Notes: generated by a model from the letters alone, not told the origin. A stretch of DNA of 64,000 nt from Promethearchaeota archaeon Loki_b32 (GCA_005223125.1 NJBH01000009.1:1-64000), one strand, 5' to 3'. Positions 15,355-60,096 are shown, counted from the first letter of the stretch. A program made the numbers and translations.

Positions 15355-15843
15355 TTAATATCTCGTTCTGGTCGCTTGAATACGGAGTTTAGCTTTTGTA
15401 TTTTCTTTTTCGTCTTGTAAAATAACATATTGTGTTTTTGATGGCAGTTTTATCTCAAATTCTTGTTCAGCAACAGTTTCATCCTTTTTCAAGTGATCTC
15501 TTTCTCTTAGAATAACTTTAATTTTCTGTATAGCGGGTTTACCTACTCGAACGGTTTTAAATTGACTCCAGAGAGACATGTCCGCTCGACTGGTAAATTC
15601 TTGATTCTTTTGCAATTTTATAGTGCCTTTGTCTGGCCATCGTGCTTTGAACGTTTTTGGACCATCCACTTTGAAATAAAATTCTCCCCGCCATCCCATA
15701 ATATCATAATCTTTCAGAGTTTTCAAACTCATTAAACCTATACTAAGTAAATAGCGTTCTTTTTCTTCTCCTACTTGATCTTGCGTAAAACTTTGATCTT
15801 TCGCGTATGTCTTTTTAGATTTAGCATAATAACGTCTTGGAAT
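15355..15843 (-). CDS. C2-domain-like protein; probable ATT start
   Basis: KDYDIMGWRGEFYFKV and VILRERDHLKKDETV resemble C2 loops 1 and 3; frame open upstream of ATG 15732 to AGGTGA-N7-ATT (15843). Confidence 0.6.
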   Translation of the reverse strand: MPRRYYAKSKKTYAKDQSFTQDQVGEEKERYLLSIGLMSLKTLKDYDIMGWRGEFYFKVDGPKTFKARWPDKGTIKLQKNQEFTSRADMSLWSQFKTVRVGKPAIQKIKVILRERDHLKKDETVAEQEFEIKLPSKTQYVILQDEKENTKAKLRIQATRTRY

Positions 15844-16010
15844 CTTTTTCTCACCTTATAATTTTGATTAAATTTGATTTATTTTTTTAACTCTAATATA
15901 GTGCTAAAGTATATATGTTTTTTTTGTTAATTTATTAAAAACTTAATAGAAACATCAATATCAAATTGAACCCAGCAATTTTAAAATTAGATTAAATCCA
16001 ATTTTTTTTT

Positions 16011-16937
16011 TTATTTATAATTTATAATAAGTACCGCAACTAATACAATAATTCCACCAAGAATATTCACCAAAACAATTGTTTCACTTCTTTGAAGTAA
16101 CAACGAGAAGATAAGTGTAAGAAAAGGTTCGATATATAAGAATGAGGCCACATTAGAAGATTTTAATATCTTTTGCGAATTTTGCCAGATAAAATAACCT
16201 AAAACATAGCAACCAAGCCCTAGATATATTGCACAAATGAATAATAGAAAATTGGAGAAGTTATTAATGAAAATCATAAGTTCACCATTCAATATAATAA
16301 AAATTAATAATTCAATGGTACCAATATAAGCCACATATTTATTGATAGTGTTACTAGAGTTAGGTTTGGATATTTTTTTAGTAGCTGTCGAATAAACTGC
16401 CCATAATAATGGAGTCATTAATGCAAATAAATAACCTATAAAATAAGGAGATTCAGGGGTAAGTGTGGTAATATCTCCTCCTGTTACTAATAAGAATCCT
16501 CCAATTGTAGCAATTACAAATCCTATTATTTTAAAAGTATTTAGTTTTTCTTTAAAAAAAACTGATGCTAAAATTGTAATAATAACCGGTGTGATTAAAC
16601 AAACAAATAATGCTGGAAGAGATGGTCCGATTATTTCTATTGCTGAGTATTGAGCAAGGAAAAATAATGAAACTCCTGTAAAACTTGAGAGTATGATTAA
16701 AATCCAATCATTTTTTGAAAGTTTTTTGTTAGTAATCGCATCCTCTCTCACATGTATGACTTTTTTCTTCTTTATTTTAAAATAAAGATCAATTATGAGA
16801 AATGTACATGATGCGATTACGAACCGATATAATGCGATAGATAAGGGCGGAATAAATTCTACAGCAATATCGACCACTACAAACGAAAAGCCCCAAATAA
16901 TAACCATAAAAATTAATTCTAAATAAACACGTAGCAT
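16011..16937 (-). CDS. DMT/EamA family transporter
   Basis: IWGFSF, PPLSIALYRF, FFKEKL; 10 TM in two repeats. Confidence 0.92.
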   Translation of the reverse strand: MLRVYLELIFMVIIWGFSFVVVDIAVEFIPPLSIALYRFVIASCTFLIIDLYFKIKKKKVIHVREDAITNKKLSKNDWILIILSSFTGVSLFFLAQYSAIEIIGPSLPALFVCLITPVIITILASVFFKEKLNTFKIIGFVIATIGGFLLVTGGDITTLTPESPYFIGYLFALMTPLLWAVYSTATKKISKPNSSNTINKYVAYIGTIELLIFIILNGELMIFINNFSNFLLFICAIYLGLGCYVLGYFIWQNSQKILKSSNVASFLYIEPFLTLIFSLLLQRSETIVLVNILGGIIVLVAVLIINYK

Positions 16938-17048
16938 TTAATATCAAACAGTAATCAGTTAATAATCATTATTTTAACAAAAATTTCTACTTTGATGATT
17001 TATTAAAATAATTTAATAATAGAAAATTAAATACATTAATATTTATTT

Positions 17049-17648
17049 TTGGAAAGAAAATTCTTGAAGAAAATTAGCTATCGTTTACGGATTGGAATCA
17101 TCGGTAAGAAAGAACCATTAAAAGAAATTTTTCTTGAAAACTTAAGAAATTCTGCTATAGAATCTAATCTTTCTGATGATTTTTATGAATTTTTATTAGT
17201 TTTCAAACAAATTCCGATTAAAATTAAGATTTATTTATATGATACTGTTGAAAATTTAATTTATGATTTTGATAATATTCAGAAACTTGATATTATAATT
17301 CTTACTTTAAATTTATCCGAGCCAGATTCACTTAGTTCCATAAATAAACAATTAATAGAAGAATTTAATGAGATATTTTCATTTCAAGGAATATCAGTGC
17401 TAGTCGGTATGAATTTTGAACATATATTTAATAGAACATCTTCAAAGAAATTTAAAATAAGTAGATTTCAATTAGAAAAAATTACAAAAGATTTGAATCT
17501 GATATATTGTTTTGAAATTTTCAATAAAAATAGGGATGTAAATGAGATTTATAATACCCTATTTAATGATTTTATCCTAAGGTTTCAATTTTCGAGTCCA
17601 GAATTGTTTAAAACCGCAAAAGAGTATGGAAAAAGACTTTTGATCTAA
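17049..17648 (+). CDS. degenerate small-GTPase (Ras/Rab-like) fold protein
   Basis: Order of strands/helices matches Rab-like fold (RIGIIG.., IKIYLYDT, DIIILTLNLSEPDSL, VLVG, YCFE) but G1/G3/G4 motifs eroded. Confidence 0.5.
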   Translation: MERKFLKKISYRLRIGIIGKKEPLKEIFLENLRNSAIESNLSDDFYEFLLVFKQIPIKIKIYLYDTVENLIYDFDNIQKLDIIILTLNLSEPDSLSSINKQLIEEFNEIFSFQGISVLVGMNFEHIFNRTSSKKFKISRFQLEKITKDLNLIYCFEIFNKNRDVNEIYNTLFNDFILRFQFSSPELFKTAKEYGKRLLI

Positions 17649-17773
17649 TTGAATACTTTTACTTCATTATTTCAAAATAGATAGAAAATCGAAAAGTTAT
17701 AAAAATAATAAGATACAAATTTAAATATAATAAGTAAAATAGCCATATCTATGATGGAGTTGAATTAAGTAAA

Positions 17774-17965
17774 ATGGGAGAATCAAACGGTTTACTAACA
17801 ATTGAGAGAAGTGAAGGTCGTAGAAGGTGTCCAAGTTGTGGAGAAGAGAATAAGAATATGATTCACGAATCTACAGATAAAACAAATATAATTAGTGATT
17901 ATCCCCGTGTTTATGGGAAGAAAAATCGATGTGGGCGCTGTGGACAAGAATGGCGCGAAAAATAG
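17774..17965 (+). CDS. small Zn-ribbon protein
   Basis: RRRCPSCG...DYPRVYGKKNRCGRCGQEW; homologous to C-terminus of 56399-57193. Confidence 0.8.
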   Translation: MGESNGLLTIERSEGRRRCPSCGEENKNMIHESTDKTNIISDYPRVYGKKNRCGRCGQEWREK

Positions 17966-18144
17966 TTAAAAATTTCTTTTATTTTTTACTTTTTGTAATA
18001 ATTTCCAAGTTTCTTTTTCAATAATACGTTCTATTATTACTAAAAACAATTTTAATTCATAATATTATAAATGACAAAAAATTAGATTATATTAATATTA
18101 GACAAATAACTTCAAGTTTTTAATAGAAGGGGAATTTAAATATT

Positions 18145-18837
18145 ATGGATTTTGCCAGAATCGTTCAAATTTACTTTGTACAAGGCGGAGTTACCTTATT
18201 TTATCTATATATGGCATATATTGTTCTTAAAAGGGGGAGAAAGCCCCTTCATATTTACCTAAGTAGTTTCTATTTATCAACTACCATTGGGGGTATTATA
18301 AATATGATCTAAGCGATAATATTTGATCCTACAATTGTTTTTATAATGCATTTCTTGACTTATTATCTCTTTTGTTTTTCAATGGTTTTTCTTCTGATCT
18401 TTGTGTTAATTCTTGTAAAACCTGCTAAAAAAATCAAGTTTAAATTACAACTAGCAATTATGATTATTTTTGGAGTATTAATTTTTGGTCTTTTATTATT
18501 TCCTAGTGGAATAGTTATAAATGAGACAACAAATTGGAAACCGGATTGGAGTTGGAGTTTTTTTATATATTCTATTGTAGTTTGTACAAGTATTGTGATT
18601 TTACCAACTCTCTATTACTCGATAAGGATTTATATAAAATTCGAGAATGAGTTTTTAAAAAAAAAGTGGAAATATTTTTTGATTGGAATTTGTGCTTACT
18701 TTTTTATCTATTATGGGACTTCATTTTCCAACACATTAAATGATGATACCTTTAGGTTCATTTGGTCGCTTATATCGTTACCAACTCTTATATCATTATA
18801 TTTGATATATCATGGCGTAGGACGTCAACTCGAATAA
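18145..18837 (+). pseudogene. 7TM membrane protein with in-frame TAA at 18310-18312
   Basis: ATG 18145 frame aligns with 18988-19740 (VQG..LKR..FYLS..IG..INMI*A vs MNFIYA); both end GVGRQLE. Confidence 0.85.
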
Positions 18838-18987
18838 ATTCCTTTACTTAATTTTTTTGTAAATGCAAATAGAATAAGTAGTATTTTTCTATTAGGAAAA
18901 AAGCAACAATAATAAATATGGAATGATAAATTGTTACATTAACTAAATATATTTTAAAATAAAAATAGCGTTTGACGTGTTTTTACT

Positions 18988-19740
18988 ATGAGTCTATATC
19001 AAATGTCATTAACTAGAGCACTAACTGTGTATGTAGCTCAAGGATTTATTTGCTTCTTTTTTATATTTTTAGCATATAAAATCCTTAAAAGAGACAGAAA
19101 ACGATTAAACTTAATCTTTTCAGGATTCTATTTATCCGCTGCCATTGGATTATTGATGAATTTCATATATGCTCCACTCGATCCGCTGGAATTTGAACCT
19201 GCTATTTTATTTCTAAATTTTATAACGAATTTTGGGATTTTTTATTCATCAATATTTCTCGTAGTTTTTGACTTAATATTATTAAAATCAGAAAAAGTTA
19301 TTTCTCCCATTAAACAGTTAGTAATTCTTATAGTCTATGGTATCGCCATGTTTTGCATGATCTTTTTCGTCTATGTTGAAGGTATAGCATTTGACGGATC
19401 TTCTCGATTGGGTGTAGAGCTTGATCTCGACAGTTGGAGTCCAATTTGGAATCTTCCATTCTTCCTGTATTTACTAATTATAGAATCAATCCCAACCGGC
19501 TTTTTCTTCTACTTTTCCTTCCAAATATATAAAAAATTTGAAGATGAACAATTAAGAAAGAAGTGGAAATTTTTTATATTTGGAGCGACTGCTTTAATAA
19601 TCTTTATGTATGGAATTTTTGTATCGAACTTTTTGAATGATCCAACATTTAGGTTAGTAATGGGCGCAATAGGTTTGATTTTAGCGATTGCTGGTGGATA
19701 TTTAATGTATACTGGCGTAGGTCGCCAATTAGAGAAATAA
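18988..19740 (+). CDS. stand-alone 7TM protein (HisKA_7TM-like sensor domain without kinase)
   Basis: Seven hydrophobic helices; no cytoplasmic output domain. Confidence 0.7.
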   Translation: MSLYQMSLTRALTVYVAQGFICFFFIFLAYKILKRDRKRLNLIFSGFYLSAAIGLLMNFIYAPLDPLEFEPAILFLNFITNFGIFYSSIFLVVFDLILLKSEKVISPIKQLVILIVYGIAMFCMIFFVYVEGIAFDGSSRLGVELDLDSWSPIWNLPFFLYLLIIESIPTGFFFYFSFQIYKKFEDEQLRKKWKFFIFGATALIIFMYGIFVSNFLNDPTFRLVMGAIGLILAIAGGYLMYTGVGRQLEK

Positions 19741-19895
19741 ACTTTTTTTTTTATTTTTATTTACAGTTAATCATCTCAAATTTTATTTTGTCTAATTAAC
19801 ATTATTTATATATAATTAGATTCAATTTAACTTTAAAACTAGAATTTTCCTAAACAATAATTTTCCTCCATAAATCTTTAAATTGTGCTTTATTT

Positions 19896-20243
19896 ATGAT
19901 TGAAGAATTAATACGGGTAAGAGGTATTGGCCCCACCGCAGCAGAGAGATTGATGAATGCGGGAGTTAAATCTGTTGAGGAAATTGCTCATTCTAAACCT
20001 GAGGAATTAGCATGGATTAAAGGGATTGGTATAGTTTCAGCAAACAGTATTATTCAAAATGCTAATGAATTGCTAAATTTAGAAAAAGGAATTCAGAATG
20101 TATTAAATTCAATTAAAGAAAATTTTGCGAAAAGTTGCCCTAAATGTGGAGGAGATATGAACGAACGATTAATTATTCTAGGTCCCGAAAGGAGATTAAG
20201 AGCAAACCAGTGCATGTTATGTAAGTTTTATATGCCTATGTAA
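19896..20243 (+). CDS. helix-hairpin-helix protein with C-terminal zinc ribbon
   Basis: VRGIGPTAAERL, IKGIG, CPKCGG...CMLC. Confidence 0.8.
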   Translation: MIEELIRVRGIGPTAAERLMNAGVKSVEEIAHSKPEELAWIKGIGIVSANSIIQNANELLNLEKGIQNVLNSIKENFAKSCPKCGGDMNERLIILGPERRLRANQCMLCKFYMPM

Positions 20244-20303
20244 TAGATTTAACAAGAGATTATGTAAAGTAAAAATTACCATACGCTAATATTTTTTTAA
20301 ATA

Positions 20304-21278
20304 TTACACTCTCATCCAAAAAGTAAAAAGAAATATATATGACATAAAATAAAGCGAAATGAAAAAAATTCCTGCTTTTTTATCTACTTTTTTTCTTACT
20401 GCAATTGTTATAAAAACAATTAAACTTGCTATTAACGTGTATAAAACTGTGGGTACAGCAAGTGCTGCTGTTACCAAATTAGGGTTTTGATTAAATACGA
20501 CTTGCCCAATCCCAATAGAGAGTGTTGAATCCACGATACATGAACCTACAATATCTCCTATAGCGATTTGGTGGTGTCCTAATTTTAAGGCATTGATATC
20601 GACAGCCAATTCCGGGAGAGAAGTGCCCACCGCAACAATAAAGAAACTTATTATATATTCATGAATGTTTAAAACACTTGAAAGAATAATAACAGATTCG
20701 ACGATCATATAAGCTGCTAAGGCTACACCACCAAATCCTAATGCAGCTATTAAGATGTGAAACTTTTTACTTTTAGGTGCTTTTATTTTTTCAATCATTT
20801 CTACTCTTTGCAGTATACTATCCTTATTAGCGTTATATATTAACCAGATATAAAATCCTAAGCTTCCAACTAATAAAATTCCGTTGAATCTAGTGATATA
20901 TGCTTTCTCAACAATAGTAAAGATTAATGTTAATGATAAAATTTCGCAAGCACCTAAAACAATTATGTCCCTTCGATGAATATAAAACATTCCAGCAACT
21001 AATGGTAATATTCCAAACACTAAGGTAAGTTGTGTTAAATCTGAACCCACAGAATCACCAACATCAATATCACTATGCCCTAATGCACAAGACATAAGAG
21101 AATTAAAAATCTCTGAAATATCTGTACCTATAGAGACCAAAGTTATTCCAATTATTAAAGGTGAAACTCCGAGCGCAGCAGCAAGTATAGCAGAATGCTT
21201 TACGGCCTTCATGCTAGAGTAAATAATAAGAGCTATTCCACCAATAAGTGTTAATATTGCCAATAATAGTTGAATCAT
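20304..21278 (-). CDS. Na+/Ca2+ (CaCA, YrbG-like) antiporter
   Basis: alpha repeats SIGTDISE and AVGTSLPE, GDIVGS. Confidence 0.9.
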   Translation of the reverse strand: MIQLLLAILTLIGGIALIIYSSMKAVKHSAILAAALGVSPLIIGITLVSIGTDISEIFNSLMSCALGHSDIDVGDSVGSDLTQLTLVFGILPLVAGMFYIHRRDIIVLGACEILSLTLIFTIVEKAYITRFNGILLVGSLGFYIWLIYNANKDSILQRVEMIEKIKAPKSKKFHILIAALGFGGVALAAYMIVESVIILSSVLNIHEYIISFFIVAVGTSLPELAVDINALKLGHHQIAIGDIVGSCIVDSTLSIGIGQVVFNQNPNLVTAALAVPTVLYTLIASLIVFITIAVRKKVDKKAGIFFISLYFMSYIFLFTFWMRV

Positions 21279-21536
21279 TTTTTAACTATATTTCTTTAGT
21301 TTTTGATTTATCTTTTCTTATTTGAGAGTTAACGAGAAAATAAGGTAAACAATGGTTTCAAAACTACATTCTTGGATATGTTATTAATTTATCGTAAATA
21401 ATATGCGATAAACTCTTCTTTCAGTTCTAATAGATATTAGCCCCTATTTAAAATTATCCATTTTTTATCCAATAACATCCATAGAGAATCCAAAAAAGAG
21501 TAAACTTATTATATAAAAAGATTCAAAAAATAACTA

Positions 21537-21692
21537 ATGGATAATGAAAAACATGAATTTCACATATCAATAGAGAAAGAAGTCTTTGATAAATTAGAAT
21601 CTATCAAAGATTATCACGGAATAAAAAATGTTACTGAAATTATCAGATTTTTAATAACAAAGGAACATAGAGAAATAAAGAAATCTGAATAA
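21537..21692 (+). CDS. 51-aa ribbon-helix-helix (CopG-like) protein, not in ORF track
   Basis: MDNEKHEFHISIEKEVFDKLESIKDYHGIKNVTEIIRFLITKEHREIKKSE: beta strand, helix, G, helix. Confidence 0.7.
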   Translation: MDNEKHEFHISIEKEVFDKLESIKDYHGIKNVTEIIRFLITKEHREIKKSE

Positions 21693-21725
21693 ATTCAAAG
21701 ATTTATTATAAACTCTAAATTTATA

Positions 21726-22517: not shown

Positions 22518-23192
22518 TTAAAAATTATAAAATTTACCCTTGTCCTTAAGTTGATAAAATCCAAATCTCTCTCTTCGTCTTCCTTTCATAGCTTCCGTCT
22601 GCCATTTCATATCTTTTGTATAGAATTGAGATTTATGTTTCTTTAATGCTTCATAAACTTTAAACCTTAAATCTCCTATTTTAATTTTTACGAGATTTTG
22701 CCCTTGAGCTTGCAATGGATTTTTTAGAGCATAAACATAAAATTTAAGATCCTCCATATTAAGTTCTTCTGCTACTTGAATCACAATATCATAAGTAGCC
22801 TGATGATCCTTGTGTTCGTTATTATTGCTTGGAATTACAAAGATATCCGCGTTTCTGACAATATTCTTAATTTTTTTCACAGCTTCGTCAATATGATTAA
22901 TTAACTCTTGATCATAAAATTTCAAAAAATGTCTTTTTTCTTTTTTTACACCTAAGAATTCACCTGCAATTTCTGCTTCAGTTAATCTAATTTTCGCTAA
23001 TTCCTCCTCTGAAATTCTTGATTCTTCACAATCGTCAAGAGTATTCTCTTCTCTTGATTTTCGATATCCTGCTCTACCGTCTGTCAACCAAATAATCTGA
23101 ACATCATGTCCTGTTTCAACCCATTTGATAATTGAACCCCCGGCACCATAACTTTCATCATCAGGATGAGGAGCAAAAACTATAATTTTGAA
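22518..23192 (-). CDS. PIG-L/LmbE family deacetylase; non-canonical start
   Basis: Upstream in-frame extension KIIVFAPHPDDE..GAGG..TDG plus HKDH; no ATG/GTG/TTG before the HPDDE motif. Confidence 0.85.
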   Translation of the reverse strand, partial: FKIIVFAPHPDDESYGAGGSIIKWVETGHDVQIIWLTDGRAGYRKSREENTLDDCEESRISEEELAKIRLTEAEIAGEFLGVKKEKRHFLKFYDQELINHIDEAVKKIKNIVRNADIFVIPSNNNEHKDHQATYDIVIQVAEELNMEDLKFYVYALKNPLQAQGQNLVKIKIGDLRFKVYEALKKHKSQFYTKDMKWQTEAMKGRRRERFGFYQLKDKGKFYNF

Positions 23193-23629
23193 AAGTGTTC
23201 ACCAATTTGATAGAAGTAGTATTTCTATATTTAGCATATCTAAATAATTATTTATTGCATTAAAATTAGATGATTATCTTTTTAAAAGCTTAAATTATGG
23301 TTTTATATCCTTAAGATCCTCCTAAATCTATATTTTTAAGTATACAAACCGTGTAGATTTAACTTATTGTAATATAGTTGGCAAATAGCTGGGTTTGGAG
23401 TGTATATTTACTCAGCAATTATTCCAGTTATGTTATTACTTAATAAAACAAACAATTTTAGAAATAAAATAATATTACACCGGACGAAGTAGCACCTAAT
23501 AAAGATAAATTAATAGAACTGGGGCTTTAAATTAAAATTTGGAATAATTTTTCAAATTTTTTTCTTTTCCTTAATTTGGAATAAAAAAATATGTAATAGA
23601 TGAAAAACTTTCATTAATCGTAAAAATGA

Positions 23630-39250: not shown

Positions 39251-39763
39251 TTATTTTTGATGTTCAAGAAATTCTAAAACAGCTTTCATAAAATCTGGTA
39301 AATCACTTGGCATTCGTGAAGTAATCAAATTATTATCAATCACAACTGAAGAATCTACGAATATAGCACCAGCATTTAACATATCATCTTTTATTGCAAA
39401 ATAACTAGTTGCCTTACGACCTCGCACTATTTTTGCAGATATTAAAACCCATCCAGCATGGCAAATAGCACCTACTAATTTTCCCTGTTCATTGATTTTA
39501 GAAACGAAATCAAGGATATCCTTATCTCTTCTAAGATAATCAGGATTTTTAGTACCTCCGGGTATTATCACACCATTATAATCATTAGGATTTACTTCTT
39601 TTATCAATTTATCCGGTTTTATTGGATATCCGTGTTTTCCTTTAATTTCTCTTCTATGTAAACTAATTAATTCGGTTTCATAACCAGCTTCGTTCAACCT
39701 AATACGGGGATAGTGAAGTTCAAGATCCTCATACCCATCTGTAGCTATAATTGCTATTTTAAT
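39251..39763 (-). CDS. pfpI: PfpI/DJ-1 family intracellular protease/deglycase; ATT start
   Basis: (M)KIAIIATDGYEDLELHYP, IPGG, AICHA, TSR.P.DL; GAGGTGA-N6-ATT at 39763. Confidence 0.9.
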   Translation of the reverse strand: MKIAIIATDGYEDLELHYPRIRLNEAGYETELISLHRREIKGKHGYPIKPDKLIKEVNPNDYNGVIIPGGTKNPDYLRRDKDILDFVSKINEQGKLVGAICHAGWVLISAKIVRGRKATSYFAIKDDMLNAGAIFVDSSVVIDNNLITSRMPSDLPDFMKAVLEFLEHQK

Positions 39764-48919: not shown

Positions 48920-48952
48920 GAAATATTTAAAATTTATTAAAGGTGAATAATA

Positions 48953-50152
48953 ATTTCTTTCGATTTTGAATTAATTTCACTGGAAAAATCTTTTGAGGAA
49001 AGACCTAACAGATCAATAGATGAGGAAGTTAAAAAATTCAAAGAATATATTCAAGAAAGAAGAGTTAAATGGACTGAAGAAGAAAAGATTGAATTAGAGA
49101 CCGATAAGTTTGATAACGACGAAAGTCTTAAAAATACTAATTCTATTTTTGTTGAAATGCCTCATCACATAATTAAGGGTGAATTAACTGAATACATAGA
49201 TGATGGTTATAAAATTATTGGTTTTGATGAGAGCTCGAATACACTCAGCGGTACATATGCCAAATTGGCATCGTTTAAATTTGGAGAATGCCAAGTAATG
49301 TTTAAGAATAGTGAGTATTATATAGAAAAAATCATGTATAAACCAATAAATACATACATTGAAGATAATGAACATAAACTTATCATTTACCAAACTGTTA
49401 TTGAAAATTTCATAAAAACTATAAAGAGAGACTTCTATGTAGGAGCCTTAAAGGCTAAAATAGATAAATTAATTAATTGGTATAACTCAACCTACAGACA
49501 AAAAATTGAAAAGCATATAAATGCACATGATTTCTATTATCCAACTTTAGCACATGTTATAGATAGAATAAGAACTGCCGATGAAATTCTAAAGACTCTA
49601 ATTAGAATCAAAGATGAGAGTAATTGGGGTAAAAAAGAAAATATTGTGTTTCTTGGTGATGGAATACAAATGTTTCGTCAACATATCTTTCCACCAAGTG
49701 CTTTTACTGAATTCTTCTATAAATTTATTGAAACGTATAATATAAAATATTATTCTTTCTCAAAAACATGTCGTTTACGCGATGCTCAAGGTAATTTTAT
49801 ATTACCGATTTGGGCAGAAATTTTAGATAAACGGAATTTCTTAATAGAATTACCAGATCTCTCAGTTTATACCAAGAGTAAAGCGTTTATTACAAGAATA
49901 CAAGAAGAAAGTTCTGCTCTTAGATTTGATATTTGTGATTATTTAGATACGAAAGATGCCATAAACACCCTTAAAAATCTAATCCCATATACTCCACGGG
50001 GATATCCATTAAGTTTAAATGGAGCACATGAAGCAAGTACTCTACTTGTTTCAGAATATAATAAATTTGAAGCTGCATTTTTAGAACTCCAATACAACAA
50101 AAAAACAAAAAAATATACACAAGAATGGAGGAAAAAAGTTTTAGGAGAATAA
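48953..50152 (+). CDS. nurA: NurA 5'-3' nuclease; probable ATT start
   Basis: IIGFDES, LGDG, FSK, GYPLSL..AHE; frame open 68 codons upstream of ATG 49157 to AGGTGA-N6-ATT. Confidence 0.8.
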   Translation: MSFDFELISLEKSFEERPNRSIDEEVKKFKEYIQERRVKWTEEEKIELETDKFDNDESLKNTNSIFVEMPHHIIKGELTEYIDDGYKIIGFDESSNTLSGTYAKLASFKFGECQVMFKNSEYYIEKIMYKPINTYIEDNEHKLIIYQTVIENFIKTIKRDFYVGALKAKIDKLINWYNSTYRQKIEKHINAHDFYYPTLAHVIDRIRTADEILKTLIRIKDESNWGKKENIVFLGDGIQMFRQHIFPPSAFTEFFYKFIETYNIKYYSFSKTCRLRDAQGNFILPIWAEILDKRNFLIELPDLSVYTKSKAFITRIQEESSALRFDICDYLDTKDAINTLKNLIPYTPRGYPLSLNGAHEASTLLVSEYNKFEAAFLELQYNKKTKKYTQEWRKKVLGE

Positions 50153-50194: not shown

Positions 50195-51502
50195 ATGGTT
50201 AAATTTGTTCATATGTCCGACACTCATCTGGGATATAGAGCCAGAAGAGGAACAACAAACAAGTGGGCAATTGAGAATTATTCAAAACCTTATGAACAGG
50301 AAATCTATGATTGTTTTTTAAAAGTTATGATTGATGTTTCTAAAATTAAAGATCTTGATTATTTAGTTCATTGTGGAGATATATTTCACCATCCTTCTAA
50401 ATATGGTTCATATCCCCCTCCTGAACCTGCAAGAAGAATACTAAAACAAGGTTTGCAAATCTTTTTTGAAAATACAAGTAATCAAGTTCCCTTTATTTAT
50501 ATAGAAGGAAATCATGGAATTTTTAGGGGATATGAATACACTCCATTTGAATCTCATATTAATAAAGATCAATACCCAAATTTATATTATTTTAAAGAAA
50601 GAGATCTTATAGAAGCAATCAAATCAGATAAACCTCTAAATTTAGAATTTCCTGATAAAAAAGTAAGGTTTTATTTGTTTCCCTTTTTCGAATTTAAAAG
50701 TTTTGAGACTTATACATCTGCTTATAATAATTGGATAAAAAATCAACAACCAAAAGATAATGAATATATAAATATTGCTGTAGCTCATGGTTCTGCAGGT
50801 GATGAAACTCTACACAGTAAGGTTAATTCCGATGATTTTAACTATGATTATGTTGCTTTAGGGCATGAACATGGTTTTAAAAAAGTATCACGAAATCACT
50901 ACTATTCTGGAGGCTTATTACCACTGAATTTTAAAGAAAGACATGAAAATCAAGCTTACCTAATTGTAAATATTGATGATAAAACTAGAGAATTAACTAG
51001 AAAAACTAAATTCACTGATAAAGAAATAAAGAGAGTTTTTGAAATTATTAAAATCGATGTTTCTCCACAAGATTCTTCAGAAGATTTGATAAAAAAAATC
51101 AAAAATGAGTTAAATAAGTATGTCTTAAATGGGGGTTTCAATCATAATACTTCAGCGAGATTAAAATTTAATTTTGAAGGTGAAATTGCATTCGAAAAAA
51201 ATTGGCAAATAAATGATTTGATGTTAAAAATTAGAAGGAGCTGTTTCTCTCAACCCGATAAATATAATATGTTACAGTTGATTTGGAAAATTTCTGATAT
51301 ATCTGAGACTCGTGAGGATGATATAAGTGCTGGAGTAATCCAAGATTATATCCTTGAAAAACCAGATGATGAGTTTAAAACGTTTGTAAATGAAAAATTA
51401 AGTGAAGATAAAACGGAATATAATGTGGATAAATTAACTGAATTTGGAATGAAAGCAATTAAAAAGGCACTAAGAATAATGGAGAAAGAGAAAGAGGTGT
51501 AA
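50195..51502 (+). CDS. mre11: Mre11 nuclease
   Basis: SDTHLG, GDIFH, GNH, AHG, YVALGHEH, YSG. Confidence 0.92.
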   Translation: MVKFVHMSDTHLGYRARRGTTNKWAIENYSKPYEQEIYDCFLKVMIDVSKIKDLDYLVHCGDIFHHPSKYGSYPPPEPARRILKQGLQIFFENTSNQVPFIYIEGNHGIFRGYEYTPFESHINKDQYPNLYYFKERDLIEAIKSDKPLNLEFPDKKVRFYLFPFFEFKSFETYTSAYNNWIKNQQPKDNEYINIAVAHGSAGDETLHSKVNSDDFNYDYVALGHEHGFKKVSRNHYYSGGLLPLNFKERHENQAYLIVNIDDKTRELTRKTKFTDKEIKRVFEIIKIDVSPQDSSEDLIKKIKNELNKYVLNGGFNHNTSARLKFNFEGEIAFEKNWQINDLMLKIRRSCFSQPDKYNMLQLIWKISDISETREDDISAGVIQDYILEKPDDEFKTFVNEKLSEDKTEYNVDKLTEFGMKAIKKALRIMEKEKEV

Positions 51503-53605
51503 TTATCCACGCATATCACTAAATTAAATTTCAAAAATTTCATGGGGTATAAGCATTTGAATTTACCTAAAGATAATGATGAATTTCCTGAAGGATTGAT
51601 TCTAGTAAGTGGAAAGAACTCCTATGGAAAATCAACGATATTGGAAGGGGTTCTTTTTGCTTTTTTTGGGCCTCGGATTTTTAGAGGAAGAAATGCAGAG
51701 TCTTTTATTACATATGGAGTTCAAGAAAAAGCTGAGATATATGTATATTTCATATTTGATAAAAAAAAATATTATATTTATCGAAAGTGGGGTAGAACAG
51801 GAAGTATTATAACAAAATTATTTGAATGGGTGAAGAATAGGAAAGTTTACCAAGAAGTAAAAAGATTTAATACTGAGAAATTTTTTGAAATCTCTTCAGA
51901 ACAAGCCATGAATACTGTCTTCGTGAGACAAGGTGAGGTAGAAGAATTAGCAAATAAAAGAGGGGCAGAATTACGAGAGATGATTATTGACTTATTTAGA
52001 TTGAATATAATTGATGATGCACTTTCTTTTTTAGATAATGAATCTAAAGGAAAAAAATATGAAAAAGAAAATCTTGAGAAATTAAGAGTCCCTATTGAGA
52101 GGATTAATAACGACATTAATCGTATTGAAAAAGAAAATTCTCAGTTAAGAAAACTAATTACAGAACAAGAAAAGAAAAAAGTGAATTATGAACAAAAAAT
52201 TAATGATTTACCTTCAAATGAATTAATATCTCAATTAGAGAATTTATATAATCAACTGAAAAGTACAAATGATAAATTCTTATCATATAAAAACGATTTT
52301 AAAGTTAAAATTAAAAAGACAGATTTAAGTATAGGAGATTTTGAATCGCAAGATACAATTATCAATAGAATAAAAACATACACCGAAAATAAAATAAAGC
52401 TAAAAAAAGAGAAGAATGAACTAGATAAGAAAAGAGAGGCTACAATTAAGGGTTTAGGGAAAACTAATGGAAGAATAGAAGACATAAAAAAATCTATTAA
52501 TAAAATGGAAAAAAGTCTGAAATTTACGATAAAGAAAGAGGGAAAGAAAATAGCATTATGTCCCACTTGTCAAAATGAGTTAACAAAGGAACATTATGAC
52601 GAAATGATTCAAAAATTCACTAATGATATTAAATTAAACCAAAATAAAGTCAAATCTATTTCACAGATATTAACGAGTTTCAATAACAACATAAAAAACT
52701 CTCAAGATAAATTAGATGCAATAAAAGAAAACATAACAATCCATCAAGGATTAAAACTGGATTTCGAGAATTATAAAAAATATGAATCAGAATTAAGAAA
52801 AATTGAAAAGGAACTTAAAAGTTTCCTTTCTGCATACGGAACTCAGTTTAAAAATTTAAGTATTGAAGGAATAAAAGAATTATCTTCTGAAAAGGAAAAA
52901 GTTTCTGTAGAATTAAAAGCACTAACAAATAGTTTGGATGAGAAAAAAGCTAAACTTCAAGCGGAACAAGAAAGAATTGGACAATTACGTAATGAAATTT
53001 TAAAAATGAAAGATTTAGAAAAAAAAATTGGAGATTATGAAGTCGATATTGACCATATAAATAAAGCTAAGGAATTTGTTCGAAGATTTGTAACTGAATA
53101 TATGGTTGTAAAACGATTAGTGAAAAATATTGCTTTAACTACTGATAAATATATTAAAGATTTCACCTCTGGGCAATATAGTGATTTACTCCTTGATTTA
53201 AGCGGAACGAGAAAAACTGGCTTATCTCTAAGAATTAAAGATAATTACAATGGTGAATACGAATCAACTGAGGTTTTATCAGGAGGAGATCGCACTGCCT
53301 TAGGAATTGCGTTACGTCTTGCAATATCAGAATTAATGAGTTCAATTCGGCCAACTAAGGACTCACCAAAAAGAAATCCAAAAATTGACTTTCTACTGTT
53401 AGATGAACCTTTAGCCGCATTGGATGAAACTCGAAGAGAAAGAATTCTAAAGCATCTAATAAAATCGAAATCATTTTCTCAAATATTTCTCATTACGCAT
53501 ACAACAATTCCCCCTGATATTCACGCCCATAAAATAATTGTTGATAAAGATATATCTACTGGAATAAGCAAAGCGAGATTTGAAAAACCCACAGTTATTA
53601 TTTAA
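51503..53605 (+). CDS. rad50: Rad50 ATPase; true start lies upstream of ATG 51542
   Basis: HITKLNFKNFMGY first strand, Walker A GKNSYGKST, Q-loop, CPTC hook, LSGGD, LLDEP, ITH. Confidence 0.92.
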   Translation, partial: LSTHITKLNFKNFMGYKHLNLPKDNDEFPEGLILVSGKNSYGKSTILEGVLFAFFGPRIFRGRNAESFITYGVQEKAEIYVYFIFDKKKYYIYRKWGRTGSIITKLFEWVKNRKVYQEVKRFNTEKFFEISSEQAMNTVFVRQGEVEELANKRGAELREMIIDLFRLNIIDDALSFLDNESKGKKYEKENLEKLRVPIERINNDINRIEKENSQLRKLITEQEKKKVNYEQKINDLPSNELISQLENLYNQLKSTNDKFLSYKNDFKVKIKKTDLSIGDFESQDTIINRIKTYTENKIKLKKEKNELDKKREATIKGLGKTNGRIEDIKKSINKMEKSLKFTIKKEGKKIALCPTCQNELTKEHYDEMIQKFTNDIKLNQNKVKSISQILTSFNNNIKNSQDKLDAIKENITIHQGLKLDFENYKKYESELRKIEKELKSFLSAYGTQFKNLSIEGIKELSSEKEKVSVELKALTNSLDEKKAKLQAEQERIGQLRNEILKMKDLEKKIGDYEVDIDHINKAKEFVRRFVTEYMVVKRLVKNIALTTDKYIKDFTSGQYSDLLLDLSGTRKTGLSLRIKDNYNGEYESTEVLSGGDRTALGIALRLAISELMSSIRPTKDSPKRNPKIDFLLLDEPLAALDETRRERILKHLIKSKSFSQIFLITHTTIPPDIHAHKIIVDKDISTGISKARFEKPTVII

Positions 53606-54620: not shown

Positions 54621-54902
54621 TTGTCGAATAGAGATGAAAACGCAGTATTTGTGGGTCGTAGACCCACAATGAACTACGTCATGGCCACTATGATGATTCT
54701 CAATAAAGGAGAAGAATGTACAGTGAAAGCTCGAGGTAGAGCCATTTCACATGCCGTTGACGTGTGTGAAATCCTTAGAAACAGATTCCTTAAAGGAACC
54801 GAGTACAAGGATATCAGACTTTCCACCGAACAATTAGAAGGAGAAAATGGTCAAAGCAATAACGTTTCAAGCATTGAAATTGTACTTACTCCTCCAAAAT
54901 AA
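54621..54902 (+). CDS. albA: DNA/RNA-binding protein Alba
   Basis: VFVGRRPTMNYV, KARGRAISHAVDV, VSSIEIVL. Confidence 0.96.
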   Translation: MSNRDENAVFVGRRPTMNYVMATMMILNKGEECTVKARGRAISHAVDVCEILRNRFLKGTEYKDIRLSTEQLEGENGQSNNVSSIEIVLTPPK

Positions 54903-55128
54903 GCTAACAAGTTCGGTAATACATCAATACAATAAAACTACTTTTTTTTATTTATTTTTATTATTGTTTAAATTGTAAATTGTTTAGAACTTATAAACAA
55001 TAAAAGAATATAATTTTAGATAAATTGCACCAACTATGTAAGGAAATTATCTTTCATACTTTTCAAAAAAATTATGAGATTTTAGTAGTTAGAACTTTTT
55101 TAAAAAAAAAGAATTTTTATGTATTGAA

Positions 55129-55347
55129 TTAAAAGCCTTTCAATTTAACACCAAGGTAGAAGAAAAACCATGTAAGAAAAAATAGTATCAAAGCAATAAC
55201 AAACCATCCATTATATCCAAACAAATCAAATGTGGGTAAGAAAGGATCCCAAATGTCCATTACAATGTCCATGAAGATAAATATCCCGAGTACCATACAA
55301 AGAAATGTAAGTATAACACAAAATTTACTTGGAGGAGTCCATCCCAT
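55129..55347 (-). CDS. small two-TM membrane protein
   Basis: AGGTGA SD; two hydrophobic helices; ends KLKGF. Confidence 0.7.
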   Translation of the reverse strand: MGWTPPSKFCVILTFLCMVLGIFIFMDIVMDIWDPFLPTFDLFGYNGWFVIALILFFLTWFFFYLGVKLKGF

Positions 55348-55467
55348 TTATTAATCACCTAATTTTTTATTAGAATTTTTTGTTATGATAAAATAAAATA
55401 ACATAATTGAAAGTATAATAAAATAAGATTGACTCCTTTTTAAAGTAGATAGATTGGTCTTTATGTT

Positions 55468-56181
55468 TTAGGAATCCAATTCATCGTATTTAGTATAATC
55501 TAATTCGAGTTCTTGTACTGTATCTTCATCATTAGCCTTTGGACTATAGATAAATTTTTGGTCTCCTTTCTTTTTACTTTTAACCTCAACATCTTCTTTT
55601 TTAACAATATCCCATATAATACTAATTATGAGTAAAGCCGATACAATAACTAAAAGCGGAATTAATAATCCTGAATCCGTTAAAACAATCTTTACCCACC
55701 CTATATAAGGAATTCTTCCACATACAAGACCTAAAATTCTACCCTCTGGAACCCAAGCATCATCTGGAAATGGATTAGCATCTCCTTTAGTTAGGAAAAA
55801 CCAACCGTTGTCATACATTTTATCAACAACTCGATGAACAATTGGATCATTTGGGGCATGTATCCAAAGATCACGAGCATTAAATACGATTACATCCCCC
55901 TCTTTTCCCTCAATAGTTCCATTCTTAATTGTGGCAGGATCTTTTCCCTTTAGAAACAATAAATCCCCCTTAAGTAAATTTGGTTCCATAGAACCCGAAA
56001 CCACGACAACCATGGGAGTTTTAGTATTTAAAGTGATTTGCATAATAAAATAGATTAAAAAAGATCCTGAAAACGCTAAAACTATTAACACAACCGCAAT
56101 GATTATTTTTTTCTTTGAGGTTTGTTCTTTCTTCTTTAATTTTTTCTCATTAAAAGCCTTTCTAAAATCCTCTTTTTCCAT
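55468..56181 (-). CDS. signal peptidase I (Sec11/S26B type)
   Basis: VVVSGSMEP, GD, PIVHRV, TKGDAN, IPYIG; start placed at MEKEDF. Confidence 0.93.
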   Translation of the reverse strand: MEKEDFRKAFNEKKLKKKEQTSKKKIIIAVVLIVLAFSGSFLIYFIMQITLNTKTPMVVVVSGSMEPNLLKGDLLFLKGKDPATIKNGTIEGKEGDVIVFNARDLWIHAPNDPIVHRVVDKMYDNGWFFLTKGDANPFPDDAWVPEGRILGLVCGRIPYIGWVKIVLTDSGLLIPLLVIVSALLIISIIWDIVKKEDVEVKSKKKGDQKFIYSPKANDEDTVQELELDYTKYDELDS

Positions 56182-56398
56182 AACAAAAAAATCAGCTATT
56201 CTATGGTCAAAATAAATAAAAATACCAATATAAATTTTCTTAGCATAACAGATCAAATTTGGAATAATAATATTCTCAATTTACTAATTTACAGAATAAA
56301 CGATATCAGAAGAGTAACATTTTAAATAAAAAAATCTAGAATAAAATTATCCATATTGAAGGAAAAGAGTTATTTTAAATAGGGTTAAGAACATTAAA

Positions 56399-57193
56399 AT
56401 GTTAGAACGAAGCCACTCATTTGAATTAAGAGATAAAAATTACGATGATATCCAAAGAATAATGGAAAATGTTTTAGAAAAAGACTTATCCTTTTCAACT
56501 GATTCTAAGAGAGTGGGAAGATCCTTACTCAGAATAAATTATTTTGATACTAATGTAGATAAGGAGCAACAAAAAAATAATAGAATTACAATATTAAAAG
56601 AGTCTGAAAAAAGAATTTATATTCAAATAAATGGAAAATTAACAGATTCACAAGTAGAACATTTATGGAACGAATTTGAGAAAAATCTGAATAATTCTAT
56701 GAAAGTAGAGAAGGTTACAAAACCAATACCTTCAAAAGATAAAATTGTTCAGGAAATTAAAAATCTAATTGATGAGAGAGGATACATAGTTCAAAATGAA
56801 GATGTTCAAGAATTTTTTGAAAATTTTATAGAAAAATACACTAGATTTCCACGGGAGGATGAAATTAATTCAATAGTTAAGGGTTATATCATGATGGTAA
56901 ACGATGAAAAACTATTTGATGAGAAAGATATTGATAAAACAATAAATGAAAAGAAATTAGATATTTCCGAACCCGTTTTAGGAACAACTCAAAGAGAAAT
57001 ATCACTAACCTCTACTGATAATACTGTTTTAGCAATGTCAGAGGGAGTTGGACGTAGAAAATGTCCAGCTTGTGGAAATGATGGGTTAATACATGAAATG
57101 GATGATAAAAGCGTGATTCTCATGGATTATCCTAAGATTTATGCGAAGAAAAATTGTTGTTCACAATGCGGATATGAATGGAGAACTCATTAA
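56399..57193 (+). CDS. hypothetical protein with C-terminal Zn ribbon
   Basis: GRRKCPACG...DYPKIYAKKNCCSQCGYEW. Confidence 0.75.
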   Translation: MLERSHSFELRDKNYDDIQRIMENVLEKDLSFSTDSKRVGRSLLRINYFDTNVDKEQQKNNRITILKESEKRIYIQINGKLTDSQVEHLWNEFEKNLNNSMKVEKVTKPIPSKDKIVQEIKNLIDERGYIVQNEDVQEFFENFIEKYTRFPREDEINSIVKGYIMMVNDEKLFDEKDIDKTINEKKLDISEPVLGTTQREISLTSTDNTVLAMSEGVGRRKCPACGNDGLIHEMDDKSVILMDYPKIYAKKNCCSQCGYEWRTH

Positions 57194-57294
57194 ATTTAAA
57201 CACTTCTTCTAAATATTAATTAAAAATAGTTTTAAATAGTATATAATTTAAAATATTGATTAAGCTATTTTGAATAAATAAATTACTATAAAAT

Positions 57295-58260
57295 TTGATA
57301 AATATGGAAGATTATGCTATTATTTATAATCCTATTGCTGGTATAGCAGAAAAGACACAGGAAGATATTGAATATGCATGCCAATGCTTAGATAATTTAA
57401 AGGTTTCGTATAAGTTGTTTAAAAGTGAATATGCAGGTCACACATTAGAATTAGCTAATCAACTTGCAAAAGATGGGTATCGTGTGATAGGAGTTGGTGG
57501 AGATGGTACGTGTAATGAAGTATTCCATGGAGTCATAACCTCTGACTCTGGTGCATTATGTGGATTCATACCTATGGGATCTGGAAATGATATTCCTGCG
57601 GTAATTGGTATAATACCAAATATTAAAAGAGCGTGTGAAATAATTGCGGAAGGCCATTCTAGCAAATCTGATATTGGGTTTGCTAATACCGATGAGGGTG
57701 TCGAACGCTATTTTTTAGGAATAGGAAGTCAAGGTTTTGATAGTGAAGTGGCAAGACGGGTTAATGAAGAGGACGTGAAAAATTATAATATGATGGTCCT
57801 GAAAACAATATTCTCTTGGAAAAATAGAGAAATTATTGTGAAGATGGATAACAACAATTACGAGGGCTATGCAAACTTGGTAGCGGTTGGAAATGGAGGT
57901 TCTTATGGAGGGGGAATGTATATTTGTCAAAGAGCACGAATAGATGACGGTTTATTTGATATCAGTGTTGCAAATATTGGTAAATTAAAGCTGATATTGC
58001 AGTTTAAGAGAATGTATTCGGCATCATTACTACCTCACCCTAATGTGACTGAATATCGGAGTAAAAAAGTTAGAATAGAAATGAAAAATTCTAATGATTT
58101 ACCTTATCTATGTCAAGTTGATGGTGAAATTCTTGGTCCTTTACCGGTAACCTATGAAACTATTAAAAATGGTTATGAATTTATACACCCGAAGACTGAT
58201 GAAGTAGCAGAAGCTTTTAAGGTTAAATATGGAAGATATTTTTATGAGTATTCCCACTAA
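57295..58260 (+). CDS. diacylglycerol/lipid kinase family (YegS/DagK)
   Basis: NPIAG, GGDGT, PMGSGND, GFD, GNG..YGGG, DDG.FD, DGE. Confidence 0.92.
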   Translation: MINMEDYAIIYNPIAGIAEKTQEDIEYACQCLDNLKVSYKLFKSEYAGHTLELANQLAKDGYRVIGVGGDGTCNEVFHGVITSDSGALCGFIPMGSGNDIPAVIGIIPNIKRACEIIAEGHSSKSDIGFANTDEGVERYFLGIGSQGFDSEVARRVNEEDVKNYNMMVLKTIFSWKNREIIVKMDNNNYEGYANLVAVGNGGSYGGGMYICQRARIDDGLFDISVANIGKLKLILQFKRMYSASLLPHPNVTEYRSKKVRIEMKNSNDLPYLCQVDGEILGPLPVTYETIKNGYEFIHPKTDEVAEAFKVKYGRYFYEYSH

Positions 58261-58301
58261 CTATTTTTTTAAAACTTAATTCGAAAAAGTAATTATTAAC
58301 T

Positions 58302-58925
58302 ATGTCCGAATGGGACCAGATTTTCTCTGAAAAAGGTAAAGTTTTCACGGAACCTCATCCTGACATAGAGAGAATAATTAAATTTTTCAAAGAAAAAGGA
58401 GTTAGACGAGTTTTAGACCTTGGATGTGGAACAGGTCGTCACCTAATTTATTTATCTAAAAAAGGATTTGAAGTATTTGGTTTAGATGCCTCACCTAAAG
58501 CTTTAGAGATTTCAGAGAAATGGCTCAACGAGGAAAAAGAAAAAGCAATATTACAATTACATAGAATAGAACATGAATTTCCTTATGAAAATGGTTTTTT
58601 TGATGCTATAATTTCAATTCAAGTAATCCATCATAATTTAATGAAAGACATTATATTTACAATCAATGAAATTGAAAGAATCTTAAAGTCTAAAGGTATA
58701 ATATATATTACTTTTCCAAGACTAGGAGGGGGATCAAAAATAGATAATTGGGAATTAAAAGAAATTGAGAAAGGTACATATATTCCACAAGCAGGTCGAG
58801 AAAAAGGGCTTCCTCATCATTTCTTTACTATAGAAGAAATTAATGAAGTATTCAAATCATTTAATTTATTAGAGATCTATGATGACAGAACGAACCATCG
58901 GGCAATCCTTGGGATTAAGAAGTAG
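58302..58925 (+). CDS. class I SAM-dependent methyltransferase
   Basis: VLDLGCGTGRH, GLDAS, FDAIIS..VIHH. Confidence 0.92.
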   Translation: MSEWDQIFSEKGKVFTEPHPDIERIIKFFKEKGVRRVLDLGCGTGRHLIYLSKKGFEVFGLDASPKALEISEKWLNEEKEKAILQLHRIEHEFPYENGFFDAIISIQVIHHNLMKDIIFTINEIERILKSKGIIYITFPRLGGGSKIDNWELKEIEKGTYIPQAGREKGLPHHFFTIEEINEVFKSFNLLEIYDDRTNHRAILGIKK

Positions 58926-60096
58926 ATAATAAATTCTTTCCTTCAATAAGTTTATTTTTTTCTTTTGAAACTCCTCTTGAAACGATCAGTATTACTACAA
59001 TTACACCCGCAAATGCGATTACAACTACAATAGTTATTTTTGTTTCATTATCTATAACATTAATATCCTCATTCCAAGGAAAATCTCCTTGATATTGGTT
59101 ATTAGGGTCATTATTGTAATTATTATGCATAAATTGTTCTACAGTTTTACCAGTAACATCAAGACTGGAATTGGAAATATGATTAATATCATCTTGTGTA
59201 GTATGATGATATGACCATTCGGGATTATTCCAAAAATTAATAATTAGATCAGCTGAAGGGGTACCATTATTTATAAATGCTCTGTGATCGTCTATTATTG
59301 AAGCACTATCTGGATTTGATGGAAATTGAGAAGTAAACCCTAGTTGCCTTCCGATAGCAAATAATTCATCTAATAATGAAGAAGTAGAATACTGTTCATT
59401 GATAAATCGTAAACTTTCTCCTCCTACCATATCTAATAAAATCATACAATCAAGGGTCTCTGTTGCAGAATTATAAAAATTATTTATTTCACTAACAAAT
59501 TCTTGAGAGCCCTCGCACCAATCCCAACCATCTATTCCATAAGCATTATCTCTTCCTTGATCTTCAGCATCAAAAAACAAAAACCAGATTTGGCAAGCTA
59601 AATTCGCTCTTTGATCATAAAGAACTCTAGCAAGCTCTATAAGAACAGCACTTCCACTAGCTCCATCATTAGCGCCTGGAACAGGACTATCTCTATTTGT
59701 TAAGACAGGATCTTTAGTAGCTTTTGCGCGAGAATCGTAATGCGTTCCTAGTATTACAATATTTGATTTATGTTCATTTAGTTTAAAAAGCACATTTTGA
59801 CATTCAGTTAGATGAGCAGTAAAGTTATGCAAAAGATAAGTGAAATTACTATCAATTTGTTCAAATTTGGATATAAAATAATTTGCACAATCCTTACGCT
59901 CCTGTGTTCCAGGAATTCGAAAACCAATATCTAGCTGATCTTGAACATAAGAATAAGCATTATTACCATTAAATTGTAAATCTACGTCATAATTTTTGAT
60001 ATTTAAATTTTTTGAAGGGAAATATAAATAGATAATAGAAAGTATTAGAATTAATAAAAAGATGCTTGAAATAAAGATACTGTATCTTTTTTTTAT
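58915..60096 (-). CDS. M28 peptidase / glutaminyl cyclase-like secreted protein; probable ATA start
   Basis: HYDSR, GANDGASG, FFDAED, LLDMVG, DDH, HT..D; upstream extension gives N-terminal TM and FNG.NAY..VQ.Q...G.RIPG; GGTGA-N6-ATA at 60096; C-terminal TM. Confidence 0.85.
   Translation of the reverse strand: MKKRYSIFISSIFLLILILSIIYLYFPSKNLNIKNYDVDLQFNGNNAYSYVQDQLDIGFRIPGTQERKDCANYFISKFEQIDSNFTYLLHNFTAHLTECQNVLFKLNEHKSNIVILGTHYDSRAKATKDPVLTNRDSPVPGANDGASGSAVLIELARVLYDQRANLACQIWFLFFDAEDQGRDNAYGIDGWDWCEGSQEFVSEINNFYNSATETLDCMILLDMVGGESLRFINEQYSTSSLLDELFAIGRQLGFTSQFPSNPDSASIIDDHRAFINNGTPSADLIINFWNNPEWSYHHTTQDDINHISNSSLDVTGKTVEQFMHNNYNNDPNNQYQGDFPWNEDINVIDNETKITIVVVIAFAGVIVVILIVSRGVSKEKNKLIEGKNLLSTS

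Follow-up and report, generated by a model that had tools for sequence, protein, structure and literature searches.

Probable near-cognate, Shine-Dalgarno-led translation starts in a family of Lokiarchaea

The DNA analysed here, called the window below, makes up the opening 64 kb of contig NJBH01000009.1, which is 126 kb long and belongs to an uncultured Loki-type metagenome-assembled genome (MAG) of 4.13 Mb, 30% G+C and 95.5% completeness, whose genes have their relatives among Lokiarchaeia-type Asgard archaea of sediments and cold seeps. Six of its genes have a reading frame that extends upstream of the first canonical start codon (ATG, GTG or TTG) to a codon of another kind that follows a Shine-Dalgarno sequence (SD). 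On direct reading of the window, all six sites are present as the initial annotation had described them, and so is a canonical control in which GGTGA precedes ATG by seven nucleotides (Table 1). Because the spacer is 6 nt in the PfpI, NurA-like, M28 and PIG-L genes, the TGA of their GGTGA is in frame with the candidate start. Syntenic comparison over the span from 15,355 to 60,096 returned these six sites and no further cases.

Table 1. Candidate non-canonical starts and one canonical control, in coordinates of the window
Gene	Span	Strand	SD	Spacer	Candidate start	Basis
PfpI/DJ-1 family gene	39251..39763	-	GAGGTGA 39776-39770	actaag	ATT 39763-39761	profiles and relatives
NurA-like gene	48941..50152	+	AGGTGA 48941-48946	ataata	ATT 48953-48955	37-species alignment
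M28 peptidase with N-terminal membrane anchor	58915..60107	-	GGTGA 60107-60103	atttgc	ATA 60096-60094	23-species alignment
Unnamed 162-aa gene ('C2-like' in the initial annotation)	15355..15856	-	AGGTGA 15856-15851	gaaaaag	ATT 15843-15841	three relatives
Rad50	51494..53605	+	GAGGTG 51494-51499	TAA-TTA-TCC	ACG 51509-51511	profile; 14 relatives
PIG-L/LmbE-type deacetylase	22518..23203	-	GGTGA 23203-23199	acactt	TTC 23192	PF02585; orthologs
Control, canonical SD-led start	55345..55359	-	GGTGA 55359-55355	ttaataa	ATG 55347-55345	direct reading

Four of the six starts, those of the NurA-like, M28, PfpI and C2-like genes, are solid: conservation of the protein and codon periodicity set in exactly at the proposed ATT or ATA, and these starts are kept in relatives (NurA-like, 35 of 37 genomes; M28, 23 of 23). 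The NurA-like gene runs for 68 codons after its ATT without ATG, GTG or TTG, and its first ATG lies at 49157. Among 37 species-level genomes (63-92% identity), the aligned first codon is ATT in 28, ATA in four, ATC in three and ATG in two. The distance to GGTG(A) is constant in these orthologs, while the 6-nt spacer differs nearly everywhere. Column entropy at the start codon is 0/0/1.17 bits for positions 1/2/3 and averages 0.45/0.09/1.03 over codons 2-20; because this codon-position pattern sets in there, coding constraint begins exactly at the ATT. The window protein had no match in Pfam or NCBIfam, nor in Pfam even at E<5; PF09376 or the NurA name is attached to homologs that are 38-67% identical to it, and the gene lies between herA and mre11. 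As an observation in its own right, the protein (48953-50152) appears to belong to a divergent branch of NurA, whose models match its more distant homologs; its N-terminal extension of 68 residues is conserved.

From the ATA of the M28 gene, 88 codons pass before the first canonical codon, a TTG. The aligned start is ATA in 21 of 23 species, ATT in two and ATG in none, with GGTGA-N6 in all, and the triplet right after the TGA (ATT in the window) varies among relatives. PF04389 covers residues 101-322; the extension lies upstream of this domain yet is conserved in orthologs, and consists of a lysine-rich N-terminus and a hydrophobic anchor followed by about 60 more residues. In the PfpI gene the in-frame TGA lies inside the SD and the first TTG is 22 codons downstream of the ATT. 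With ATT as residue 1, positions 1-169 of TIGR01382 fall on residues 2-167, and PF01965 also matches from residue 2. The eight closest relatives have ATT or ATA behind GAGGTGA or GAGTTGA; in farther species the start is an ATG that follows GGAGGT and lies one codon upstream of this position, apart from one case each of TTG, ATC and ATT. Because codon types differ in this way, the PfpI start has turned over repeatedly. The C2-like gene has 37 codons free of ATG, GTG and TTG from its ATT, and the aligned codon is ATT in two relatives and ATG in one, with GGTGA or AGTGA at N6; its protein had no match in Pfam or NCBIfam, nor in Pfam at E<5. Swaps between ATG and ATH (ATT, ATA or ATC), and between TTG and ATA, were found at aligned N-termini of PfpI, C2-like and orthologs genome-wide.

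A more conventional account holds that translation begins at the first downstream ATG, GTG or TTG and that the upstream frame is an untranslated leader conserved for other reasons. This is the choice of the gene callers, and the M28 Pfam domain does stay intact after such a truncation. We regard it as very improbable in view of the periodicity of the NurA-like extension, the frames that stay open across species, and the position of the SD, which precedes the ATH codon and not the downstream one. Moreover, the extensions hold the first strand of PfpI, the region of the PHPDDE motif of PIG-L, the N-terminus of Rad50 and the zinc knuckle of initiation factor aIF1, whose gene is described below. 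The initial annotation had seen family-conserved sequence in four of the extensions, and this was borne out: profiles place the family N-terminus on the proposed codon or no more than three residues from it in PfpI, PIG-L and Rad50, and in M28 the conservation is among orthologs, upstream of the Pfam domain.

The two remaining sites are weaker. The Rad50 SD overlaps the mre11 stop, and position 3 of the NF003034 profile falls on residue 5 of the frame, which puts position 1 on the ACG; alternative starts are ATC 51515 and ATG 51542. The proposal of an ACG start draws on this profile fit and on a genome-wide enrichment of ACG (see below); ATG occupies the aligned position in 14 of 14 relatives. 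The ACG is a probable start, known from a single genome. Separately, mre11 and rad50 (window 51500-51542) share a reading frame with one TAA between them; this looks like coincidence rather than read-through, the stop being not always in frame in relatives. For PIG-L, the PF02585 domain begins at residue 4 of the TTC frame, and the only near-cognates nearby are ATT 23186 and ATA 23183. At the aligned codon ATG prevails among orthologs; GTG occurs once and ATT twice, in one of these two cases with ATG immediately upstream. TTC differs from ATG at two positions, and so falls outside the one-mismatch class; as a type of start it was not upheld, since neither TTC nor TTT shows enrichment after an SD. 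A homologous N-terminus beginning at a near-cognate, with no canonical codon upstream, was found for PfpI, NurA-like, M28, C2-like, aIF1 and, with ACG, Rad50. We also observed that the PIG-L ortholog of another species of the genus (L268, G005) has TTT behind GGTGA-N6, so that in two species of the genus TTC or TTT, two mismatches from AUG, stands exactly 6 nt after GGTGA where orthologs have ATG.

These two genes are an argument for sequencing or assembly error, or recent pseudogenisation, by which the true starts would be ATG or TTG and the genes damaged in this MAG: ACG in Rad50 stands against ATG in 14 relatives, TTC in PIG-L against mostly ATG, and the genome does contain real fragments, among them a frameshifted gene and a GTPase with an in-frame TAA. 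However, the same ATH codons recur, with frames intact, in 20-37 independently assembled species, contigs from a second sample of the same study show 0-1 differences across the NurA start region, and the enrichment described below is specific to codon and spacing. Error or decay is refuted for PfpI, NurA-like, M28, C2-like and aIF1, and as a general account we give it hardly any credence. Contigs from four public runs also cover the stretch, and one contig from an RNA library spans herA through the NurA start. The interrupted GTPase is a 720-codon translational GTPase (IDHGKTT; G000:C3:75833, plus strand, G000 being the genome of the window) whose TAA lies just before G1, where the same-genus ortholog has His; an assembly error, variation within the population or a damaged gene copy could each account for it.

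We then turn from single genes to the genome as a whole. The scan took in G000 and 1.2 Mb of a same-genus genome, and recorded codons behind GGTG from which the frame stays open for 100 codons or more, provided that a stop lay no further than 12 codons upstream and that no canonical codon preceded them. At a spacing of 7 nt, G000 has 40 ATH against 32 canonical codons, so that ATH accounts for 40 of 110 open-frame starts compared with a background of about 10% at other spacings; the same-genus genome has 16 against 6. The G000 counts are 15 against 21 at 8 nt and 9 against 13 at 6 nt. Near-cognates at 6-8 nt behind a strict GGTG core are about as frequent as ATG, GTG and TTG. Spacing is tight: 82% of near-cognates lie at 6-8 nt, whereas canonical starts spread broadly over 5-9 nt. 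At spacings 6 and 9 the SD's own GTG falls in frame, and the filter therefore under-counts near-cognate and canonical starts alike. The enrichment of ATH does not stem from the in-frame TGA, because GGTG[CGT] shows it too. GGTG(A) lies 6-8 nt upstream of the starts, is conserved while the spacer varies and is enriched genome-wide, with the matching anti-SD being assumed.

Codon by codon, with both genomes pooled and spacings of 6-8 nt, the canonical starts exceeded expectation (ATG 43 vs 11.4, TTG 28 vs 5.0, GTG 8 vs 1.5), as did the three ATH codons (ATT 45 vs 17.5, ATA 34 vs 14.9, ATC 10 vs 5.4) and two further near-cognates (CTG 6 vs 0.2, ACG 3 vs 0.2). TTT, TTC, TTA, GTT, GTA, AAG, AGG, AAA and AAT stayed at or below expectation. 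The accepted set is AUG and its one-mismatch neighbours minus AAG and AGG. TTY, GTH, AAG and AGG were rejected as start codons for lack of enrichment behind SDs. One unusual frame may be mentioned here: a 381-codon open reading frame (ORF) at G000:C4:31333 (plus strand) includes 46 start-less codons; in it and in its ortholog of G006 (the same-genus genome used for ortholog pairs), an AAG follows AGATGA at 6 nt, and no near-cognate of the accepted set lies nearby. Among 2772 coding-like ORFs, 87 begin with at least 40 start-less codons (about 13 expected) and 42 with at least 60 (about 1 expected). Relaxed, SD-anchored start choice as a property of the lineage, as the initial annotation had put it, is borne out by the near-cognates conserved in 20-37 species, by the ortholog swaps and by the same statistics in the same-genus genome.

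Coupling to upstream genes might offer another explanation, in which ribosomes that terminate on one gene of an operon reinitiate at a weak codon of the next. PfpI, NurA-like and Rad50 do lie 8-30 nt behind an upstream gene. Genome-wide, the fraction of starts within 30 nt of the end of an upstream same-strand gene is 11% for SD-led near-cognates, compared with 33% where an SD leads a canonical start and 16% over all ATG starts; operon coupling was rejected as a general cause on the 11% against 33%, and we consider termination-reinitiation extremely improbable.

How the codons are read is a separate question. A pattern search located an initiator tRNA on contig C48 near 102.8 kb with A1:U72, a G:C-rich anticodon stem and the anticodon CAT, so an altered initiator anticodon was rejected as the cause. 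This gene (G000:C48 ~102824-102990, plus strand) has apparently two introns, after 37/38 and in the T arm region, and an encoded CCA; it was missed by aragorn and Rfam, which find only about 21-23 tRNAs in the MAG. A reassignment of the code, by a changed anticodon or with internal AUA read as Met, was not found: internal ATA, ATT and ATC interchange at conserved Ile positions. The starts could nevertheless be real and decoded differently, by a second initiator-like tRNA or a tRNA-Ile (giving N-terminal Ile), by an initiator with modified C34 as in mitochondria, or through AUH-to-AUG editing. Speaking for this are a nearly free third base, as in mitochondrial AUN, and a tRNA-Ile(UAU); the tRNA set is also incomplete, since only about 21 tRNAs were assembled. 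ATG occurs at two of 82 conserved ATH starts, and because G makes up 9% of four-fold sites, this rarity comes close to the expectation for an unconstrained third base; ATG seems to have no strong advantage in the SD-led ATH context. The single initiator tRNA found is standard, however, and CTG and ACG are enriched too, so one-mismatch pairing to CAU fits better than an Ile-specific reader. We also know of no mRNA editing in archaea. Other decoding is in our judgement improbable. The tRNA-Ile gene, with anticodon TAT and an intron, lies at G000:C38:42157-42260 (minus strand); in most archaea AUA is read by a modified CAU tRNA.

The gene of aIF1 lies outside the window (G000:C48:127289-127600, minus strand) and is the sole SUI1 gene of the genome. 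Because it has 57 codons without ATG, GTG or TTG, it starts upstream of its CPxC zinc knuckle, and the candidate start is an ATT 9 nt behind GTGA. The aligned codon is ATT, ATC or ATA in all 22 genomes, from six genera, of the Lokiarchaeal family termed f1 here. A 20-nt leader, AAAGGTTGTGAAAAAAGAGT, is nearly invariant in most f1 genomes; it may be a regulatory element, because its conservation exceeds the needs of an SD. Outside f1 the start is TTG in a genome of the sister family f2, and ATG or GTG in seven genomes of four other Asgard families. A fidelity factor with a conserved near-cognate start, as in bacterial infC, is thus found in aIF1. The genes of IF3 (infC, via AUU) and of eIF1 (via poor context) are autoregulated through their own weak starts (PMC4705826). 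The initial annotation had supposed that weak starts could be a regulatory layer, and the conserved ATH start of aIF1 gives this idea a concrete form. The inspection of aIF1 fidelity residues that it proposed yielded no explanation: loop 1 (RRKWGR) is conserved, and the other substitutions are common to f2, which lacks the signal. There, in a sample of 0.4 Mb, GGTG with a 7-nt spacing precedes 2 ATH against 10 canonical codons; the GC-rich family f4, sampled over 0.4 Mb, gives 4 against 14, of 110. The start-less tail is near expectation in both samples, and the signal is not evident in these two sister families.

We consider it very likely, from sequence comparison, that family f1 uses near-cognate, SD-led translation starts. 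For the mechanism, we infer that the SD, which has GGUG at its core and most often reads GGUGA, base-pairs with the 16S rRNA 3' end, which would put the codon about 7 nt downstream into the P site, where the ordinary initiator Met-tRNA (anticodon CAU) would be accepted despite one mismatch. AUU, AUA and AUC would be accepted starts, with CUG and ACG rarer. In this reading such starts are a heritable trait of one Lokiarchaeal (Promethearchaeota) family, in which start-codon stringency seems to be set low, and aIF1, translated from its own AUU, AUC or AUA behind the conserved leader, may exert an infC-like feedback on stringency. A more far-reaching version is tentative, and we rate it a little short of an even chance. 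It holds that the whole family has a lowered set-point at which the one-mismatch codons of AUG except AAG and AGG are usable with a GGUG SD, that strong SDs largely serve these codons, that the AUH start of aIF1 holds the set-point, and that this archaeal counterpart of the infC and eIF1 loops arose at the base of the family.

Several points weigh against this interpretation. The starts are read from DNA, and the N-terminal residue may be Met or Ile. The anti-SD is assumed because the 16S rRNA is absent from the MAG assembly. At a spacing of 6 nt, some genes, a minority, could in reality start at the in-frame GTG of GGTG, and the ACG of Rad50 and the TTC of PIG-L are not separable from recent mutation. 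The family-wide breadth leans on small samples, 0.4 Mb each of f2 and f4. Finally, no correlate of lowered fidelity was found in the aIF1 sequence: the basic loop is unchanged, and ITF for IEG and CASGGT also occur in f2.

To estimate how many genes are affected, we counted those in which an SD core stands in register with a near-cognate and canonical codons are absent both ahead of it and from the eight codons that follow. At least 79 genes (2.8% of the 2772 coding-like ORFs) have such a start, compared with 376 that have an SD-led canonical one; among plain ATG starts, the share preceded by an SD of this kind is only 16%. In 580 ortholog pairs between G000 and G006, 50 G000 genes align at least 15 codons upstream of their first canonical codon. 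Triage by eye assigned about 27 of these extensions to credible ATH or CTG starts and about 14 to shadow ORFs or fragments, the rest being unclear. With canonical codons at a frequency of 3.57% in coding sequence, correction for a chance canonical codon in the first 15 codons gives an estimate of about 8%. The orthologs thus suggest that 5-9% of genes have near-cognate starts. The start-less tail gives 11-13%, an upper bound because broken genes are counted in. The relaxed use proposed by the initial annotation stands, and its figure of roughly a tenth of genes lies at the upper end of these values.

Near-cognate starts behind an SD lead standard gene finders to shorten proteins, as had been predicted. 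Among 64 close public cluster representatives for the NurA-like protein, the annotated start lies downstream of the conserved one in 47, which begin 4-69 residues late and include the 331-aa form that represents the cluster of the window protein itself; 11 begin 2-3 codons early, in the SD or spacer, and 6 at the conserved position. Asgard proteomes are mined for eukaryote-like proteins, and nearly all MAG annotation comes from callers that use ATG, GTG and TTG only. Should ATH, CTG or ACG lead 3-9% of the genes of a major family of Lokiarchaea, the database N-termini of their proteins are missing or wrong, at the cost of signal anchors, first strands and zinc knuckles; for one gene, 73% of public representatives are truncated. 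Structure prediction, localisation calls and expression constructs would all be affected.

To our knowledge, archaea have been thought to accept AUG, GUG and UUG only, and aIF1 is known to reject AUU; the initiators of translation table 11 include ATT, ATC, ATA and CTG. In a full-text literature search we found no systematic report of ATH starts in Asgard archaea. The sole printed hint was a 'rare ATT start codon' proposed for atubA in a Kariarchaeaceae (Heimdall-type) MAG (bioRxiv 10.64898/2026.02.15.705738; Sci Adv PMC13394414). There too an annotation-truncated Asgard gene was rescued by an upstream ATT at a plausible ribosome-binding-site distance, but this concerned one gene of a different Asgard class, called a rarity, and came without conservation or genome-wide analysis. 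Reviews describe SDs as rare in Lokiarchaea (PMC12993045).

The nearest likenesses lie elsewhere. Bacterial infC and pcnB also start with AUU behind an SD, and there too a fidelity factor's gene is weak-started, IF3 in bacteria and aIF1 here (PMC4705826). In bacteria this involves a handful of genes and the IF3 machinery, whereas here it involves some 3-9% of genes, about half of strict-GGTG starts, and archaeal/eukaryote-type aIF1 and aIF2, with aIF1 autoregulation proposed by analogy. Eukaryotic non-AUG initiation shares the aIF1/eIF1 family, the one-mismatch codons and the exclusion of AAG and AGG, and eIF1 autoregulates through a weak start (PMC4705826, PMC5666671). Eukaryotes, however, rely on scanning and Kozak context, while here an SD at 6-8 nt sets the register and the weak codons open ordinary main ORFs. 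Animal mitochondrial AUN starts likewise have a nearly free third base, but they go with an altered code (AUA = Met) and a tRNA-Met that is modified; in the present genes, internal ATA, ATT and ATC interchange as Ile codons, and CTG and ACG are also used. In work on Sulfolobus (S. solfataricus) in vitro, as cited in two papers, 30S subunits with aIF1A, aIF2 and Met-tRNAi bind an AUU mRNA led by an SD, and the presence of aIF1 prevents this (PMC4705826, PMC6237735). That state, there an artefact of omitting aIF1, would here be the normal state of the lineage. A lineage with routine AUH starts and an AUH-led aIF1 makes it testable how start stringency is set, and it bears on the evolution of stringency between SD-guided and scanning systems, Lokiarchaeia being among the closest archaeal relatives of eukaryotes.

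Elsewhere in the window, four suspected sites (35082, 32753-, 56399 and 47177) were rejected, as syntenic relatives indicate ordinary ATG starts. In the region upstream of the ATG gene at 56399 (56360-56398), the segment ATTAGGGTTAAG is kept in four relatives; stops mark it as non-coding, and it may be a leader element.

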